A stretch of 64,000 nucleotides of DNA from a virus: positions 1,038 through 65,037 of the IMG/VR virus record IMGVR_UViG_3300045988_146982; one strand, given 5' to 3'. Position 1 is the first letter of the stretch. Each line of letters begins with the position of its first letter. Below the pieces are notes generated by a model, which was given only the letters and a program-made list of their open reading frames with translations, had not been told where the DNA came from and made no database searches. The position numbers and the translations under genes were made by a program. Below are positions 24,250 to 64,000 of the stretch, one piece after another.

Positions 24250-25071
24250 TTAAGCAGCATCTTTACCTAAGAACTTCTCTACAAAGTAAATCTGCCCTTT
24301 GCCAGTAACTTTTGTAGTAGTAGTTACCAATACAGAACCATCCGGCTTAGTGATTGATGTTTTCTTCAATTCAAAAAGCCCCAATTTCATGGCTTTCTGT
24401 GTCGGTTGATTGTAGTAGTCACCTTTTTGGCAAAGGTAGCCGTTTTCACGCATCCAGCTAAACAAACGGTTCTGACCGATATTCACTCCATTTTGTTGCA
24501 GTATCTTTGCTAATTCAGCAACCAAGCAAGAACGTTGAGAAGTTGAAACGGCATCGGCAAAAAGGACTTTAGGTGCATCTTTCTGAATCTTCTGTTCGGC
24601 TTCGATACGCTTCTGTTTTTCTTCTTTCAAGTTGGTTGCAAGCTGAATCAGAAAATCGGGTGAGGTCAAAGCCTTTTCAAGTGTATCGCTGGTCATGTAT
24701 GCACCATGTTTGCGGATTGAGGGCAAAACTTCATCGCAAACCCAATCTTGGAACTTTTCGGCATCCGGCAATTTAGATTTCATAGTTAAACGATAAACCT
24801 CGCTTTCCTTGCCGTACTTTATGTCTTGTACACCGCCATTTGTGGGGGTCGGCAAAATAACGACCCCTTTACAGTGTTGATTTACAGCATCGGCAGGGCT
24901 GCTATACCCAAGGGCTTTTGCAACATCTGCCAAACAAAACAACGGTTCTTCATTCTCATTCATAGCAATTCTTACTTTTCCGAACTGCTCATTTTGGAAA
25001 ATCTGAATATTATTCATACTTTTACACAGTTTTAAAAATTGAACCCCACCAAAGGACGCTCCTAACTTCAT
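24250..25071 (-). CDS. ant: Antirepressor (Bro-N domain + KilA-C/ANT domain)
   Basis: Bro-N-like IFQNEQFGKVRIAMNENEEPLFCLADVAKALGY. The C-terminal half fits the KilAC pattern (LVAELAKIL...NRLFSWMRENGYL). The probable true start, MNNIQIF, is at 25017. Confidence 0.8.
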   Translation of the reverse strand: MKLGASFGGVQFLKLCKSMNNIQIFQNEQFGKVRIAMNENEEPLFCLADVAKALGYSSPADAVNQHCKGVVILPTPTNGGVQDIKYGKESEVYRLTMKSKLPDAEKFQDWVCDEVLPSIRKHGAYMTSDTLEKALTSPDFLIQLATNLKEEKQKRIEAEQKIQKDAPKVLFADAVSTSQRSCLVAELAKILQQNGVNIGQNRLFSWMRENGYLCQKGDYYNQPTQKAMKLGLFELKKTSITKPDGSVLVTTTTKVTGKGQIYFVEKFLGKDAA

Positions 25072-35065: not shown

Positions 35066-35839
35066 ATGGACTATATAAATAAAGGAACTTGTATTTTTTG
35101 TGGTAAAGATGTAACTCAAACGACATTTAAAGAGAAGCCACATACTATGCCAAAAAGTTTAGGTAGCATAAATATTGGTGTTGATATTTGCGATGAATGC
35201 AATCACTATTTCGGTCAACCTGACGACTTTGTGTTTCCTAAACTTTGTATAGAAGTTTGTGTTAAAGAAATATTTGGACTATCAAAAGCCTTGCTTAACA
35301 GAGAAGATAATTCAGAAAGATTAAAGTCAATATATTTCGAATATTGGAAGTCAAAAAGAAAAATAGTTCTCAAATCACATTTTAAGTTTAATGATAGATT
35401 TCTAACAACATTTGCAAGACAATTCAAGAGAGGAATATATGAAATGTTCCTTCAAGAATATCATAAAATAACAGGTAATGGATTAGACAATCGATTTAAT
35501 CAAATTAGGAGATTTGCACGTTATAATATTGGAGATATTCCTTTGTATTATTTAGTCAATAATGGAGTTTACTTAATAGAAGAAAAATTTTCATCTCCTA
35601 AGTTTTCCTTTTCCGATTCACAATTTAATGATATAGAAACTTATGGATTTTATACATTAATATTGTATGGACAATGGTTCTTTTTAGAAGTTACCCCAAG
35701 AGCTGAACTATCTCGTGAAATTTATTTAAAAATGCAATGTGAAAAAATGAATGTTGGCGGATTTGTATATAGAGATTTAATTGAAATAAAAAGAATTACG
35801 GATATAGATTTTAGCTTAAGAAGCTTGTTTGGAAGGTAA
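35066..35839 (+). CDS. HNH / His-Me-finger-like protein with an unknown C-terminal domain (defence or Abi candidate)
   Basis: N-terminus CIFCGK...KPHTMPKSLGS...CDECNHYFG matches a CxxC...H...CxxC-N zinc/HNH layout. It is on the opposite strand to the structural genes. Confidence 0.45.
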   Translation: MDYINKGTCIFCGKDVTQTTFKEKPHTMPKSLGSINIGVDICDECNHYFGQPDDFVFPKLCIEVCVKEIFGLSKALLNREDNSERLKSIYFEYWKSKRKIVLKSHFKFNDRFLTTFARQFKRGIYEMFLQEYHKITGNGLDNRFNQIRRFARYNIGDIPLYYLVNNGVYLIEEKFSSPKFSFSDSQFNDIETYGFYTLILYGQWFFLEVTPRAELSREIYLKMQCEKMNVGGFVYRDLIEIKRITDIDFSLRSLFGR

Positions 35840-41119: not shown

Positions 41120-41797
41120 CTATTGCTTTTGTTGATTATTATACTCCCAAAGCACCCTTTCAGCCATTGGGAAAACTTTGTAAATTCTCTGTAAATCTTG
41201 CGGGTAATTATTCTCCATCCAAAGCATACAATCAAGATTGAAACCTACTCCCGAACTGGCTTTCAATGAATATCGAACTGGTTCGGGTAATTTGTGCTGT
41301 CTCATATAAGCAAGAATGTCCTTTTGTGTCCAATCAGCCAAAGGATAAACCATACCGTTATTCTCGTAACCGTTTACCTCATACCCTTTCAGCATAAGCC
41401 TGCGGTTCATACCATCAGCTTTTTTCATGCCCAAGAATGTATAATAAACTCCATGAGTAAGCTGCATAGCCTTTACCACATCTGCCAACTTCAATAGCTT
41501 TACTTTCGGATTAGGCACGCAATACATACCTCCACGAAGAATATAAGTAAGATTCCAGTGAGGCACTTGCACAAACTCAATCTTTGGATATTTGACTTTA
41601 GTCCAGCCAATCCATCGGTTAATGTGCTCCAAATTCTTGACAAAGTACATGAACACACAAACAATCCGGTCAAACTTCGGATAGATTAAATCAAGCAGAA
41701 CAAGCGAATCTTTGCCAAGTGATAAAAACAGTAAAGCCTCATTCGATTTTACCCGAATGAGGTCTATATACCGGTTCGCTTGTTCTACCTTGCTCAT
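41120..41797 (-). CDS. PAPS-reductase / PP-loop family protein
   Basis: PP-loop variant LFLSLGKDSLVLLDL near the N-terminus. Confidence 0.6.
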   Translation of the reverse strand: MSKVEQANRYIDLIRVKSNEALLFLSLGKDSLVLLDLIYPKFDRIVCVFMYFVKNLEHINRWIGWTKVKYPKIEFVQVPHWNLTYILRGGMYCVPNPKVKLLKLADVVKAMQLTHGVYYTFLGMKKADGMNRRLMLKGYEVNGYENNGMVYPLADWTQKDILAYMRQHKLPEPVRYSLKASSGVGFNLDCMLWMENNYPQDLQRIYKVFPMAERVLWEYNNQQKQ

Positions 41798-42389: not shown

Positions 42390-42421
42390 AATCGTGTCAA
42401 ATTTAAATTAATACTCAATAG

Positions 42422-42493
42422 TTGCGGGGGGCTGAATCGAACAACCGACCTTCACCAAGTCAAAGTGAAAAGCTACCACTGCTACACCCCGCG
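42422..42493 (-). tRNA. Phage tRNA with an initiator-type acceptor stem (C1xA72) but anticodon GAC
   Basis: Hand-folded 72-nt cloverleaf: CGCGGGG TG TAGC AGTGGTA GCTT T TCACT TTGACTT GGTGA AGGTC GGTTG TTCGATT CAGCC CCCCGCA A. Confidence 0.7.
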
Positions 42494-47469: not shown

Positions 47470-47964
47470 TTATACGTTAATTGGTAGTTTCATAAAACAC
47501 ATCCATATTGTTTTGCTCTGCCTTCCGGTAGTATGCCCAAATAAAGGTTTGAACGGGATAACAGACAAAACTTCCGCAGCTTTTATCTCACTCTCGTTCC
47601 ATTTGAATACAAGCGTGCCGTTAGGCTTCAAGACGCGCATACACTCAGTAAATCCATCGTGTATGAGTGACTGCCAGTCTTTCGGTAGTTTCCCGTACTT
47701 CTTAGCCATCCATGAGGTTTCACCAAGTGTTTTCAGATGAGGTGGGTCAAATACTACCATGTAAAAAGAATTGTCCTCAAACGGCAAGTTGGTAAAATCG
47801 GCTATTATATCCGGTTTTATCTCTATGGTTCTGATTTTACCCCTGTCATTGGCTGTTACTATCTCCGATCTCTTATCAACGAATAAGGCAAGAGGATTAT
47901 GTTTGTTAAACCAAAACATTCTACTGCCACAGCAGGCATCTAATATAAGTTTTCCATTTTCCAT
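47470..47964 (-). CDS. DNA methyltransferase, DPPH motif (N6-adenine or N4-cytosine class)
   Basis: Motif I-like LILDACCGSRMFW and motif IV VVFDPPHL. Confidence 0.7.
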   Translation of the reverse strand: MENGKLILDACCGSRMFWFNKHNPLALFVDKRSEIVTANDRGKIRTIEIKPDIIADFTNLPFEDNSFYMVVFDPPHLKTLGETSWMAKKYGKLPKDWQSLIHDGFTECMRVLKPNGTLVFKWNESEIKAAEVLSVIPFKPLFGHTTGRQSKTIWMCFMKLPINV

Positions 47965-49697
47965 TAAGCTATTTCTTTTGATTTCTTCAATCTCAACTTT
48001 CTCAATACTTTACAAAGTGCTTCAGTATTTTTTCTAGCTTGTGTAACCTCCACCGCATTCCCGATAAATTTCTTTTGGTCAGCTTGTGTGCCTATTAAAA
48101 CATAATCTTCAGGGAATCCCATAATCTTTTTGAGTTCCGGAATGCGAAGCATCCGCATTTTAATATCCACTATGCCATACAGTGCCATGAACTCCTTTAT
48201 CTTCACGATCATAGGACTATCATTGTCGTAGATTTCAATCGCTAGCCGTCCGCTTTCTGTTGCTACCAGATAGGGCGGCATCTTATCCATTCGTGCTATC
48301 AGGGTGAAGCAGGGGTTATCAACGGAGCTGCCAGCGCTGTTGAACTGTGGATTCATCAGATAATGCCATTTCCGGTTTGCGGTTATTGTCTGTGCCGGTT
48401 CCTCTATGTTGCTACCAATATTTGAGAAAGAAGTATTCATAATCCAAGGCTTGCATGTTATAAGTTTTTGCTTGGGATTGGTTAAAATTGCCGGACAAAT
48501 ATTGTCAATACTTGTATGTTGTCCTCCACCGGAATACTCATTGGCGATAAACCTTGGAGTTACTAATGATAATTTGTCTTTTGTTGTAACTGTCGCAGAC
48601 GGCTCGTTTACCGAATGATTATGTCCATTTCCATAATAAGCAGAGACAAAAACATGGTGGTCTTTGCAGGTGATTGCACCTGCCGGTTCTTCTACGGACA
48701 CATTCTTGCTTTCGGGATGTCCGCTGAACTGTTTGGAGAGAAAACTTACCTGTACCTTTGCAAAGCGGTTTTCAGTAGTCAACACTCCGCATGGTTCATC
48801 AACTGATTTGCATGTGTCTTGAGGGCGAACCGTATTGTAACGGGAAAGGAAAGCATCCTTTCCTCCGGCTACAAACTTGATAAGTCCAGCATAGATACGT
48901 TCAAGCGTTTTCTCTGCAAGAGGCTTTTCCCTGAAGATGGTAGTTCCTTCATCAGAGAAATCAAGCACATCCTTTACCGGCTTCCACTTCTCCAGCCGCG
49001 AAAACATATCTTGCCTACCACCCTTACAGTGGGTCGGTTCAGGGAATACTATCGGCAAACTCTTTTTAGCAAAGATGCCGAAGAAGCGTTTTCTTGTGGT
49101 ATAGGCGCCGAAGTCGGCAGCATTCAGGATACGGTGTTCAAAGTTGTAACCATATTTTTTCACGTTGCGTACCCACTTCTGATAAAGTCTTCCTTTATCC
49201 ATGCTGATAGGTTTCCCATTCTCATCCATATCTCCCCATGACATAAACTCTTCTACATTTTCAATCTGAATGTAATCAGGGTCTATAACATCAATATAAC
49301 GGAAGAGATGTTCTGCCAACGTTCGGCTGTCGGCATCTCTCGGCTGACCGCCTTTGGCTTTCGAGAAGTTAGTACACTCCAAAGAGGCATGAAGCATTAT
49401 CATGGCATCAGAGTATAGCTGGCGGATACGTTCTACAATAGTGCTTATCGGGGAAAGTTCCAGTGTACGGATATCCTCAATAAAGTGAAGTGCATCTGGG
49501 ATATTGGCATCATGTGAAAGGATGGCATTCTTGTCATGGTTCACACAACAAACAACCTTTGCACATTTATTTCCATCCAATCGTGCTTCTTCCACACCTT
49601 CGGATAAGCCACCGGCGCCACAAAAGAGATCAATAACAAATAGTTCTATATCGGACAGACCTTCAATGGATTTTAAGATATCTTTCTGCGATTTCAT
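47964..49697 (-). CDS. DNA (cytosine-5) methyltransferase, long form (577 aa)
   Basis: Motif I DLFCGAGGLSEG, catalytic Cys region SLECTNFS, ENV (IQIENVEEF), TTRKRFF, and C-terminal GNAV. Confidence 0.8.
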   Translation of the reverse strand: MKSQKDILKSIEGLSDIELFVIDLFCGAGGLSEGVEEARLDGNKCAKVVCCVNHDKNAILSHDANIPDALHFIEDIRTLELSPISTIVERIRQLYSDAMIMLHASLECTNFSKAKGGQPRDADSRTLAEHLFRYIDVIDPDYIQIENVEEFMSWGDMDENGKPISMDKGRLYQKWVRNVKKYGYNFEHRILNAADFGAYTTRKRFFGIFAKKSLPIVFPEPTHCKGGRQDMFSRLEKWKPVKDVLDFSDEGTTIFREKPLAEKTLERIYAGLIKFVAGGKDAFLSRYNTVRPQDTCKSVDEPCGVLTTENRFAKVQVSFLSKQFSGHPESKNVSVEEPAGAITCKDHHVFVSAYYGNGHNHSVNEPSATVTTKDKLSLVTPRFIANEYSGGGQHTSIDNICPAILTNPKQKLITCKPWIMNTSFSNIGSNIEEPAQTITANRKWHYLMNPQFNSAGSSVDNPCFTLIARMDKMPPYLVATESGRLAIEIYDNDSPMIVKIKEFMALYGIVDIKMRMLRIPELKKIMGFPEDYVLIGTQADQKKFIGNAVEVTQARKNTEALCKVLRKLRLKKSKEIA

Positions 49698-61881: not shown

Positions 61882-63351
61882 ATGAAATTCAATCAATACC
61901 TTTGGAATCTATACAAGAACTCCCCTTCCGGGAAAGTTGTCATATCCAGCTTTTCAGACAGAAAGGAATGGATAGACGAGGAGCAGCTTTTAGAACGCTA
62001 TAACCCAAGTATCAAAGACAATTTCAACAAAGAAATTATATGCGAAATACTGGAAGATTTTTGGTGCTATAAAGTTTCCGATTTTGAAGGTATAGAATAT
62101 CCGTCACTTGATGAAGCTAGTAGTATATATGAAGGTATTATCTCTACCGGACTACGGATAGAGAATGAAGAAGTATTAAAGATAGGAGATTTCAACTTGA
62201 TGCTTGAATACATCCCATTCCTCTCAATGGAGTTAAACTACCTATTTGGTGAATATTTCTTTCCATATTTGTACATTGACAGATTCTATGAACTCAAAAA
62301 GTTAGCTGACTATTTTGAAATAGAATTGCCGCCAATTCCCAAGAAGCCCGATTACAAAAATAGGTGCATGTATTATTGGGAACTATGCAAAGTGTTCTAC
62401 TATTTCAGAATGGAAAACAACTTGACACCCGATGAATTGAGCGCATTTATGTATGATTATGTGCCAAACCTTCTGAATACGGAAGAAAAAGGAGTTATTC
62501 CGAAACCATCACAAGCATGGTTTATCGGTGGATTAATAAGAGGATATGGTGAACATTGGACTACCGGATTTTGGCAAACCAATCAAGAAACTAAGAAAGG
62601 AGATATTCTTGTTCATTACGAGACATCACCTATAAGCGCAATTACTTGTTTGTGGATAGCACAAACCGATGGTGTTATCGACCCGTTCTTCCACTATTAC
62701 AGCAACACTTATATAAGTAACAGAATAGCCATTCCTCACATCACATTAAAAGAGCTTCGGGAAGATGAACACTTCTCCAGCCACCCGCTCATAAGAAAGA
62801 ACTTTCAAGGAGTGAACGGATGGTCAATGAGTAGCGAGGATTATTCAGAACTCCTGCGAATGATAAAGGCAAAAGGATTTGATATAGACACCCTGCCGAA
62901 GCTATATACTCCTACACTACCCAAGAATGTAAGTATAGAAAAAGAAAGAGATGTGGAACTACAACTACTGGAACCATTGCTTAACTCTATGGGATGGTAT
63001 GAGAACAAAGACTTCATTCGTCAATTACCAATACATGCAGGACGTGGACACCGGATATTTCCCGACTATGCTCTGCATTACGATAATAAGCCAGACGAAG
63101 AAAAAGCAAAGGTTTTAATTGAGGCAAAACTCTACATGAAGAATAACCAAGAAATAGAAGAAGCATTTTTGCAGGCTCGCTCATACGCTCAGCTTCTTGA
63201 ATCCTATATCATCATCCTATGTGATAAAGTGGGGTTAATTGTATATAAGAAAAAGGGAAGTTTTGACCGAGGCAGGTACAAAAAATACTATTGGGAAGAG
63301 CTTGAAAATACTGATATTTTCAACGAATTAAAGAACAAACTAAATATTTAA
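61882..63351 (+). CDS. Fusion protein: unknown N-terminal domain + PUA-like (EVE/ASCH-type) domain + C-terminal PD-(D/E)xK nuclease (HSDR_N-like)
   Basis: The C-terminus ERDVELQLLEPLLNSMGW...FPDYALHY...KVLIEAK fits the type I R-subunit N-terminal nuclease pattern. The middle region WFIGG...KKGDILVHYETSPISAI looks PUA-like. Confidence 0.55.
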   Translation: MKFNQYLWNLYKNSPSGKVVISSFSDRKEWIDEEQLLERYNPSIKDNFNKEIICEILEDFWCYKVSDFEGIEYPSLDEASSIYEGIISTGLRIENEEVLKIGDFNLMLEYIPFLSMELNYLFGEYFFPYLYIDRFYELKKLADYFEIELPPIPKKPDYKNRCMYYWELCKVFYYFRMENNLTPDELSAFMYDYVPNLLNTEEKGVIPKPSQAWFIGGLIRGYGEHWTTGFWQTNQETKKGDILVHYETSPISAITCLWIAQTDGVIDPFFHYYSNTYISNRIAIPHITLKELREDEHFSSHPLIRKNFQGVNGWSMSSEDYSELLRMIKAKGFDIDTLPKLYTPTLPKNVSIEKERDVELQLLEPLLNSMGWYENKDFIRQLPIHAGRGHRIFPDYALHYDNKPDEEKAKVLIEAKLYMKNNQEIEEAFLQARSYAQLLESYIIILCDKVGLIVYKKKGSFDRGRYKKYYWEELENTDIFNELKNKLNI

Positions 63352-63355
63352 GATT

Positions 63356-63553
63356 ATGATTGACTTTCTAACCATCATACTCCTAATATTCGGAGTATTA
63401 CAAATCATCCTCTTCTTCAAAGTATGGGGAATGACAAACGACATCAAAGATATAAGGAACAAGTATCTCAAAGACGAAGATGAGAAACAAAGAAAAAACA
63501 CAGAGTATGACGTTATAACCAAAATAAGTGGCGGTTCTAAACCAACAATATAA
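63356..63553 (+). CDS. Small membrane protein (65 aa)
   Basis: N-terminal TM segment FLTIILLIFGVLQIILFFKVW. Confidence 0.45.
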   Translation: MIDFLTIILLIFGVLQIILFFKVWGMTNDIKDIRNKYLKDEDEKQRKNTEYDVITKISGGSKPTI

Positions 63554-63574
63554 ATCATTTAATTAACATTTCAA

Positions 63575-63725
63575 GAGATCGTAATTTAAACTGTGTCAAT
63601 CCTTAACAAGTCTGATTATCTCAAATTTTACTTTCGGATAAATATCTGAATATCAGATGAATTCAGAGTAGTATTAAACTAAGAAATAATAAACTAAAGG
63701 TTTGACACAGTTCTATTTACATAGC
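63575..63725. repeat. Right copy of the 151-bp perfect inverted repeat
   Basis: Reverse complement of 294-444, 151/151 identical. Confidence 0.95.
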
Positions 63726-63850
63726 CATTTCCAATACCACTGACAAAGTGGCAAATGTATAGTAGATTGTGTTTTGAAATATTCAGAAAGCCAAGCGTAA
63801 TTGCCTGATAATAAACAAAGTTGCTTTCCTCCTTTTACTGACCTTCTAAG

Positions 63851-63884
63851 GCGTGGGTCCTGCGTTCGAATCGCAGCGGAATCA
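63851..63884 (+). tRNA. tRNA 3' fragment (T arm + acceptor 3' strand); likely an att core or displaced tRNA end
   Basis: CTGCG-TTCGAAT-CGCAG T arm, then CGGAATC-A. No matching 5' acceptor strand (GATTCCG) lies upstream. Confidence 0.6.
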
Positions 63885-63891
63885 CTTTTAT

Positions 63892-63926
63892 AAAACGCTG
63901 ATTACCAATAAAATAATCAGCGTTTT
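63892..63926 (+). terminator. Intrinsic terminator after the tRNA fragment
   Basis: AAAACGCTGATTA pairs with TAATCAGCGTTTT (13-bp stem). Confidence 0.7.
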
Positions 63927-64000
63927 CTCTTCTAAAGCAGCTGCTCTGCATAAAAAAAACTGCATTTCTACGAATATATTTGAGCAAAATTGTATAGTAG

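Follow-up and report, generated by a model that had tools for sequence, protein, structure and literature searches.

Two enzymes in which an EVE domain is joined to an HNH nuclease, TspA15I and VcaM4I, have been proven to act as modification-dependent endonucleases (Lutz et al. 2019, PMC6765204), and VcaM4I is named as the EVE-family endonuclease in a 2025 review (PMC12707154). Lutz et al. also found a single EVE-DUF3427-PD-(D/E)XK protein. Bell, Wolf & Koonin (2020, PMC7641849) predicted computationally "a substantial variety" of EVE-PD(D/E)XK type IV enzymes, and nuclease domains have been noted to occur with EVE sensors as well (Yee et al. 2025, PMC12191111). Here we describe a 489-amino-acid (aa) protein, P0001, encoded at positions 61882..63351 (+) of a 64,000-nucleotide (nt) stretch of viral DNA, hereafter the window, which corresponds to bases 1038-65037 of IMG/VR record IMGVR_UViG_3300045988_146982. 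The protein comprises an all-helical N-terminal domain, a predicted EVE (PUA-like) reader of modified bases and an HsdR-N-type PD-(D/E)xK nuclease domain, and its gene lies directly behind a CI-type repressor gene. We favour, with some reserve, the reading that it is a single-protein restriction nuclease, modification-dependent (type IV-like) and expressed in the lysogen.

An earlier note, made from the sequence alone, had placed a 489-aa open reading frame (ORF) at these coordinates behind the repressor gene, with an HSDR_N-type PD-(D/E)xK C-terminus, and both claims were confirmed. The ORF begins with ATG, and this start is backed by conserved N-termini (MKFNQY...) in 24 homologs. In the nuclease domain (aa ~343-489; 62908..63351, +) the stretches PDYALHY, LIEAK and QARSYA are present and nearly invariant. 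The motif residues are E355, D395 (in PDY), E414-A-K416 (in IEAK) and Q431-x3-Y435. Among 132 diverse relatives D395 is kept in all 132 and E414, K416, Q431 and Y435 each in 131, and the motif as a whole, E355 included, is kept in 131-132 despite a mean column identity of ~31%. Pfam HSDR_N is matched by 19/24 close homologs and 82/132 diverse homologs, and HSDR_N_2 by 41. Searches of PDB sequences with the single sequence and with a shallow profile returned chance matches only. A first full-length AlphaFold model, built from 24 close sequences, left residues 200-285 at a predicted local distance difference test (pLDDT) score of ~33, and a Foldseek search with it gave no matches. Refolding residues 196-489 with the 132 diverse sequences resolved the low-confidence region and yielded a mean pLDDT of 95 and a predicted template modelling (pTM) score of 0.85. 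In the refolded model, residues ~343-489 superpose on several restriction-enzyme nuclease domains. Judged by its motifs, the protein has an intact nuclease domain, with its catalytic residues, in the same chain as the reader.

The middle of the protein (aa ~208-336; 62503..62889, +) had been described in the earlier note as EVE/ASCH-type PUA-like on the strength of the motif WFIGG ... KKGDILVHYETSPISAITCLW, which indeed lies in an EVE-folding domain. When the model of residues 196-489 was submitted to Foldseek, the four top matches were all EVE-fold structures (2gbs at an expectation value (E) of 1.9e-5, then 1zce, 2eve and 2ar1; E 1.9e-5 to 5e-4), followed by ASCH, YTH, THYN1 and the EVE-HNH restriction enzyme VcaM4I. 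Pfam EVE (PF01878) matches 13/132 relatives (best E 4.6e-5), and three of the five weak matches of the family profile to the PDB are EVE proteins (2gbs, 1wmm, 1zce). Both the EVE and the HsdR-type nuclease folds are therefore called from a model at pLDDT 95 by two independent aligners, with Pfam and PDB profile support. Within the EVE/ASCH-type PUA-like group, the specific answer for residues ~208-336 is the EVE fold, as modelled. Its signature residues are W231, G240-D241, Y246, P250, W258 and P268-F269. Among the 132 relatives D241 is kept in 132, P268 in 131, W231 in 127, Y246 in 120 (with W in a further 10), F269 in 120 and W258 in 116. By analogy with known readers, W231, Y246 and W258 are candidate pocket residues.

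The N-terminal domain (aa 1-200; 61882..62481, +) was modelled as all-helical at pLDDT 70-95 even from the shallow alignment. Variability within the protein is highest at residues ~26-125, and residues 126-200 contain the conserved P128, P150, P153, Y165 and Y191. The earlier note had called the domain unknown, and this stood: no consistent family emerged from profile searches of Pfam and PDB sequences, the language-model atlas gave unnamed clusters only, and a shape search of ESM-Atlas and BFVD returned its own family or noise only. Probably the domain helps in contacting DNA or a ligand, in oligomerisation or in regulation. The ratio of nonsynonymous to synonymous substitution rates (dN/dS), measured over 132 close pairs, is 0.085 in the variable part (~26-125) versus 0.056-0.060 elsewhere, and a value of about 0.09 was obtained for the gene. 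All three domains are under purifying selection, and since dN/dS is 0.06-0.09 in each of them we regard this as a working gene. The idea that the variable N-terminal part is an arms-race surface gained no support here, as dN/dS by domain revealed no positive selection.

The gene sits between the CI gene and the integrase gene of a complete temperate Bacteroides phage and is co-oriented with the former. The viral contig is complete at 65,037 bp, with a 55-bp direct terminal repeat. Nearly all genes of the window are on the minus strand, and the lysogeny module is a short plus-strand block at the right end with the order 192-aa membrane protein, CI repressor, 489-aa ORF, 65-aa membrane peptide, integrase. 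The repressor (61206..61865, +), a helix-turn-helix protein with an S24 autopeptidase, matches Peptidase_S24 (E 6e-10) and PHROG 4 "transcriptional repressor" (E 3e-26), and 16 nt separate the end of its gene from the start of the nuclease ORF. We surveyed 102 fetched loci of relatives by close alignment, a procedure biased to relatives above ~40% identity. In 90 of the 101 related loci the gene immediately preceding the nuclease gene on the same strand encodes a CI-type repressor, and 67 of these 90 have a gap of 1-4 nt. The two genes assort as a mosaic: one and the same repressor is found next to a nuclease gene that is 65% identical, and a nuclease gene that is 92% identical is found next to different repressors, a pattern typical of accessory immunity cargo. 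Downstream genes vary. The 65-aa predicted membrane peptide encoded directly 3' of the nuclease gene (63356..63553, +) is a variable passenger found in a subset of relatives, others having unrelated ORFs of 102-283 aa in its place, and no neighbour other than the repressor is conserved across the 102 loci. More distant copies (42-53% identity) are chromosomal and stand beside AddAB-like or housekeeping genes with no conserved partner, which argues that the protein is a stand-alone unit.

The family is large. An exhaustive profile search recovered 669 cluster representatives (E <= 1e-3), most of them 470-540 aa long with all three domains; at least 669 clusters exist at 50% identity, and single 90% clusters contain hundreds of member sequences. 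Relatives were found on a further 231 IMG/VR contigs, and the genome matches are all to Bacteroidota (Bacteroides, Phocaeicola, Parabacteroides, Prevotella, Hallella, Capnocytophaga, Tenacibaculum and Millionella). A tblastn search of the GenBank phage collection, from which near-identical records may be missing, gave no match. Three distant relatives of 634-641 aa from Hallella / Prevotella (L023:4554-6461, L024:4548-6473, L028:218-2122) have an extra N-terminal extension of ~150 aa with no family match; they adjoin AddAB-like helicase-nuclease genes outside prophages. P0227 and P0243, two of the 150 representatives listed, retain both the helical and the EVE domain, with 40% identity to the query over residues 55-354, carry a TIR domain at the N-terminus and have no nuclease. 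At the place of the nuclease these two proteins (P0227:510-593, P0243:510-608) have a small C-terminal domain of ~85-100 aa whose sequence is rich in beta-strand-like stretches (VGG.G.V..G.V..G). The helical domain and the EVE domain appear to travel together as one sensor unit, still attached to each other when TIR replaces the nuclease, and an exchange of nuclease and TIR effectors on such a module is typical of immune sensors.

We propose the following mode of action. Because the gaps measure 1-16 nt in most loci and no plus-strand terminator was found between cI and the nuclease gene, the cI transcript would be expected to read through into the nuclease gene in the lysogen. The EVE domain would then scan incoming DNA and flip a modified base into an aromatic pocket, as suggested by analogy with THYN1, VcaM4I and SRA. 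The HsdR-N-type domain, whose activity is presumed from the catalytic motif, would cut the DNA nearby by means of D395, E414 and K416. Superinfecting phages bearing the modification would be destroyed, while unmodified prophage and host DNA would be spared, and such a protein would serve in defence.

The content of methyltransferases in the phage bears on this proposal. The earlier note had counted two and suggested that they might interact with the nuclease. The count is partly borne out: one methyltransferase is clear, a C5-cytosine enzyme of 577 aa (47964..49697, -), long for its family and with its Pfam match split in two, and an abutting 164-aa ORF (47470-47964, -) gives an N6_N4_Mtase signal that, at 16 bits, is weak and falls below the cut-off. 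Genes for a C5-methyltransferase occur in 24 of 49 related phages, the similar ones encoding ~570 aa, and C5-methyltransferases are also encoded in 9/10 host genomes that carry the nuclease gene. Coupling of the nuclease to the C5-methyltransferase of its phage was rejected, as only about half of the related phages have the enzyme. Neither N6_Mtase (PF02384) nor Methylase_S (PF01420) was found anywhere in the complete 65-kb phage. A cognate protective methyltransferase is absent, and the nuclease would act alone. The absence of a methyltransferase, HsdM or HsdS partner, together with the lack of a conserved chromosomal neighbour, fits type IV logic.

The predicted EVE-PD(D/E)XK class (PMC7641849) is among the closest described systems. 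Like its members, P0001 fuses an EVE reader to a PD-(D/E)xK nuclease, its EVE domain is fast-evolving and hard to detect by sequence, and it occurs in a defence or mobile-element context without a cognate methyltransferase. No member of that class, a computational grouping, has been characterised, and here an extra conserved helical N-domain of ~200 aa and an HsdR-N-type nuclease are present; unlike the class, moreover, the 489-aa family is fixed in the cI operon of Bacteroidota prophages. We regard it as an uncharacterised and very common variant of the predicted class, set apart by the conserved helical domain at its N-terminus, its constant location in the cI operon and its TIR-swapped relatives. 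VcaM4I and TspA15I (PMC6765204; PDB 6yex) combine an N-terminal EVE domain with HNH, whereas here the EVE domain is central and the nuclease is PD-(D/E)xK; they have no helical N-domain and share ~12% sequence identity with the 489-aa protein. YenY4I (EVE-DUF3427-PD-(D/E)XK; PMC6765204) likewise combines a reader of the PUA superfamily with a PD-(D/E)xK nuclease in a single chain, but its middle domain and domain order are different, and DUF3427 was not detected in the 489-aa protein or its relatives. As for its genetic setting, the locus resembles lambda cI-rexA-rexB and other prophage exclusion genes linked to a repressor, where an accessory defence gene follows the repressor gene directly in the same orientation and is thereby expressed in the lysogen, as we infer here. 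The proteins and the mechanism are unrelated to those of RexAB, which is a two-protein membrane-depolarising abortive system.

Several observations weigh against the proposal of a modification-dependent restriction nuclease. The query itself matches Pfam HSDR_N below threshold (20.5 bits, cut-off 25.1, aa 378-437), and it is a full-length match to PHROG 37753, the function of which is not annotated. The chromosomal copies do not lie within obvious defence islands. PADLOC (v2), one of the checks put forward in the earlier note, had no model matching the protein or its neighbours and so misses the family altogether, and we found no experimental work in the literature on an EVE-HsdR-type nuclease or on the 489-aa family. 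A broad specificity for 5-methylcytosine is ruled out, since the nuclease coexists with C5-methyltransferases in its phage, in related phages and in its hosts; the trigger is more likely a rarer base (5-hydroxymethylcytosine or one with a hypermodification) or else a restricted sequence context. Finally, EVE domains can read RNA too. In an RNA-directed system the EVE domain would recognise a modified base in RNA, such as tRNA or the transcripts of a phage, and cleavage by the nuclease would fall on RNA, or the nuclease would act on RNA-DNA hybrids. We think this very unlikely and take DNA to be the presumed target. Hardly any credence can be given to the notion that the protein is a fragment or subunit of a type I restriction enzyme, which stems from the names of its homologs in NCBI ("type I restriction endonuclease subunit R") and UniRef and from weak HSDR_N and NF046051 (restrict_EcoAI) matches confined to the nuclease domain. 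The NF046051 NCBIfam score is 14.7 against a cut-off of 550. The remaining 340 residues form the helical and EVE domains and include no helicase/translocase domain, and Pfam matches to a superfamily 2 (SF2) motor (ResIII + Helicase_C) were absent from the query and from 24 + 132 relatives. The phage has no HsdM or HsdS, and the conservation of the 489-aa architecture over 669 clusters argues against a truncation. We compared the nuclease domain with those of type I HsdR (EcoR124I, 2w00; V. vulnificus HsdR, 3h1t) and type IIG/IIL enzymes (BpuSI, 3s1s; DrdV, 7lo5). Unlike these, the 489-aa protein lacks an SF2 motor as well as methyltransferase and specificity modules, HsdM/HsdS partners are missing, and its target choice would come from the EVE domain. 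Identity as HsdR is refuted, as the HSDR_N-type nuclease is present but the motor domain and the partners are missing, and the NCBI name is misleading.

Three further explanations were considered. In an abortive-infection system, the helical and EVE domains would detect modified nucleic acid or another infection cue, and an indiscriminate effector (the nuclease, or a TIR NADase in the variants) would kill or arrest the lysogen. The joining of helical and EVE domains to TIR in P0227 and P0243 speaks for this, as TIR effectors typically act by NAD+ depletion, and so do the suggestion that EVE-nuclease proteins may act in programmed cell death (Bell et al., PMC7641849) and the conserved extra N-domain, which suggests regulation beyond plain tethering. 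However, a nuclease of the HsdR-N type is what targeted restriction enzymes cut with, the characterised EVE-HNH relatives cut beside the modified site and are non-toxic (PMC6765204), and the TIR variants are as rare as noted above. On balance we hold abortive infection to be unlikely. The other two explanations turn on the N-domain, which bears a weak, full-length structural resemblance to Ogg-type glycosylases; hhalign comparison with ten Bacteroidota EndoIII proteins gave a probability of 0.09%. END nucleases, which pair an inactive EndoIII/Ogg sensor with a nuclease (Yee et al. 2025, PMC12191111), resemble the 489-aa protein, on the reading favoured here, as modular modification-dependent defence nucleases. 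END^PaCF1 has a PLD-type nuclease, and its proven sensor is iEndoIII rather than EVE. Glycosylase kinship has no profile support here. It is distinctly unlikely that the protein is a dual-sensor END-like nuclease, in which the N-domain is a catalytically dead helix-hairpin-helix (Ogg/EndoIII-type) glycosylase fold that also senses non-canonical bases, giving two reading modules. A bolder and quite doubtful version holds that the helical domain and EVE together make up a new sensor of two parts, possibly pairing a dead glycosylase fold of Ogg/EndoIII-like type with the EVE reader. This sensor would recognise hypermodified DNA of phages and, by allostery, activate exchangeable effectors (PD-(D/E)xK or TIR). 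The protein would then be a new kind of ligand-activated immune sensor of gut Bacteroidota prophages and not a simple tethered type IV enzyme.

The human gut is dominated by Bacteroides and its relatives, whose prophages are abundant. To our knowledge, almost nothing is known experimentally about how the prophages of this group guard their hosts from other phages. The gene described here sits in the one operon that a dormant phage keeps on. If the protein is indeed a modification-dependent nuclease, phages carrying modified DNA would exert significant pressure there, and the enzyme could be used to detect or map DNA modifications, as with other type IV enzymes.

Other features of the phage were noted around the lysogeny module. 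No family matches the 192-aa predicted membrane protein (60331-60909, +). Its gene separates the early lytic operon from the repressor gene, in a markedly AT-rich stretch with a GC content of 0.29-0.32 versus ~0.40 elsewhere, and could be another lysogen-expressed passenger. A search with a Bacteroides-type promoter pattern detected none on the plus strand that could serve the cI operon, and the pattern occurred in the window at a frequency consistent with chance. A minus-strand match to this pattern (TTTG ... TAnnTTTG; 61169-61201) lies just upstream of the repressor start, directed away from it, with small minus-strand ORFs (60899-61078 and 61048-61215) downstream; it may mark the leftward arm of the genetic switch, although matches to the pattern are at the chance level. 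At the other end, the gene for the tyrosine integrase starts at about 63990, with its first bases at 63990..64000 (+), and crosses the contig junction (contig bases 45-1298); its ORF matches Phage_int_SAM_5 (E 1.2e-9) and Phage_integrase (E 1.5e-6). The non-coding stretch of ~440 bp between the small membrane peptide and the integrase start (63554-63990) likely holds attP, and in related prophages the nuclease gene is often 0.3-2 kb from the predicted prophage end.

The minus-strand genes of the window include structural genes, an antirepressor, the C5-methyltransferase, a SNF2-type helicase, and NinG, ERF and SSB-like proteins. In the early/replication region, a PAPS-reductase-domain protein is encoded at 41120-41797 (-; E 8.5e-9); such phage proteins are sometimes tied to DNA modification. 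The phage also carries a tRNA-Val (GAC) gene at 42421-42493 (-) and an HNH_5 endonuclease ORF at 35066-35839 (+) within the minus-strand structural region, and the antirepressor gene, of Bro-N/KilAC type, lies at 24250-25071 (-).
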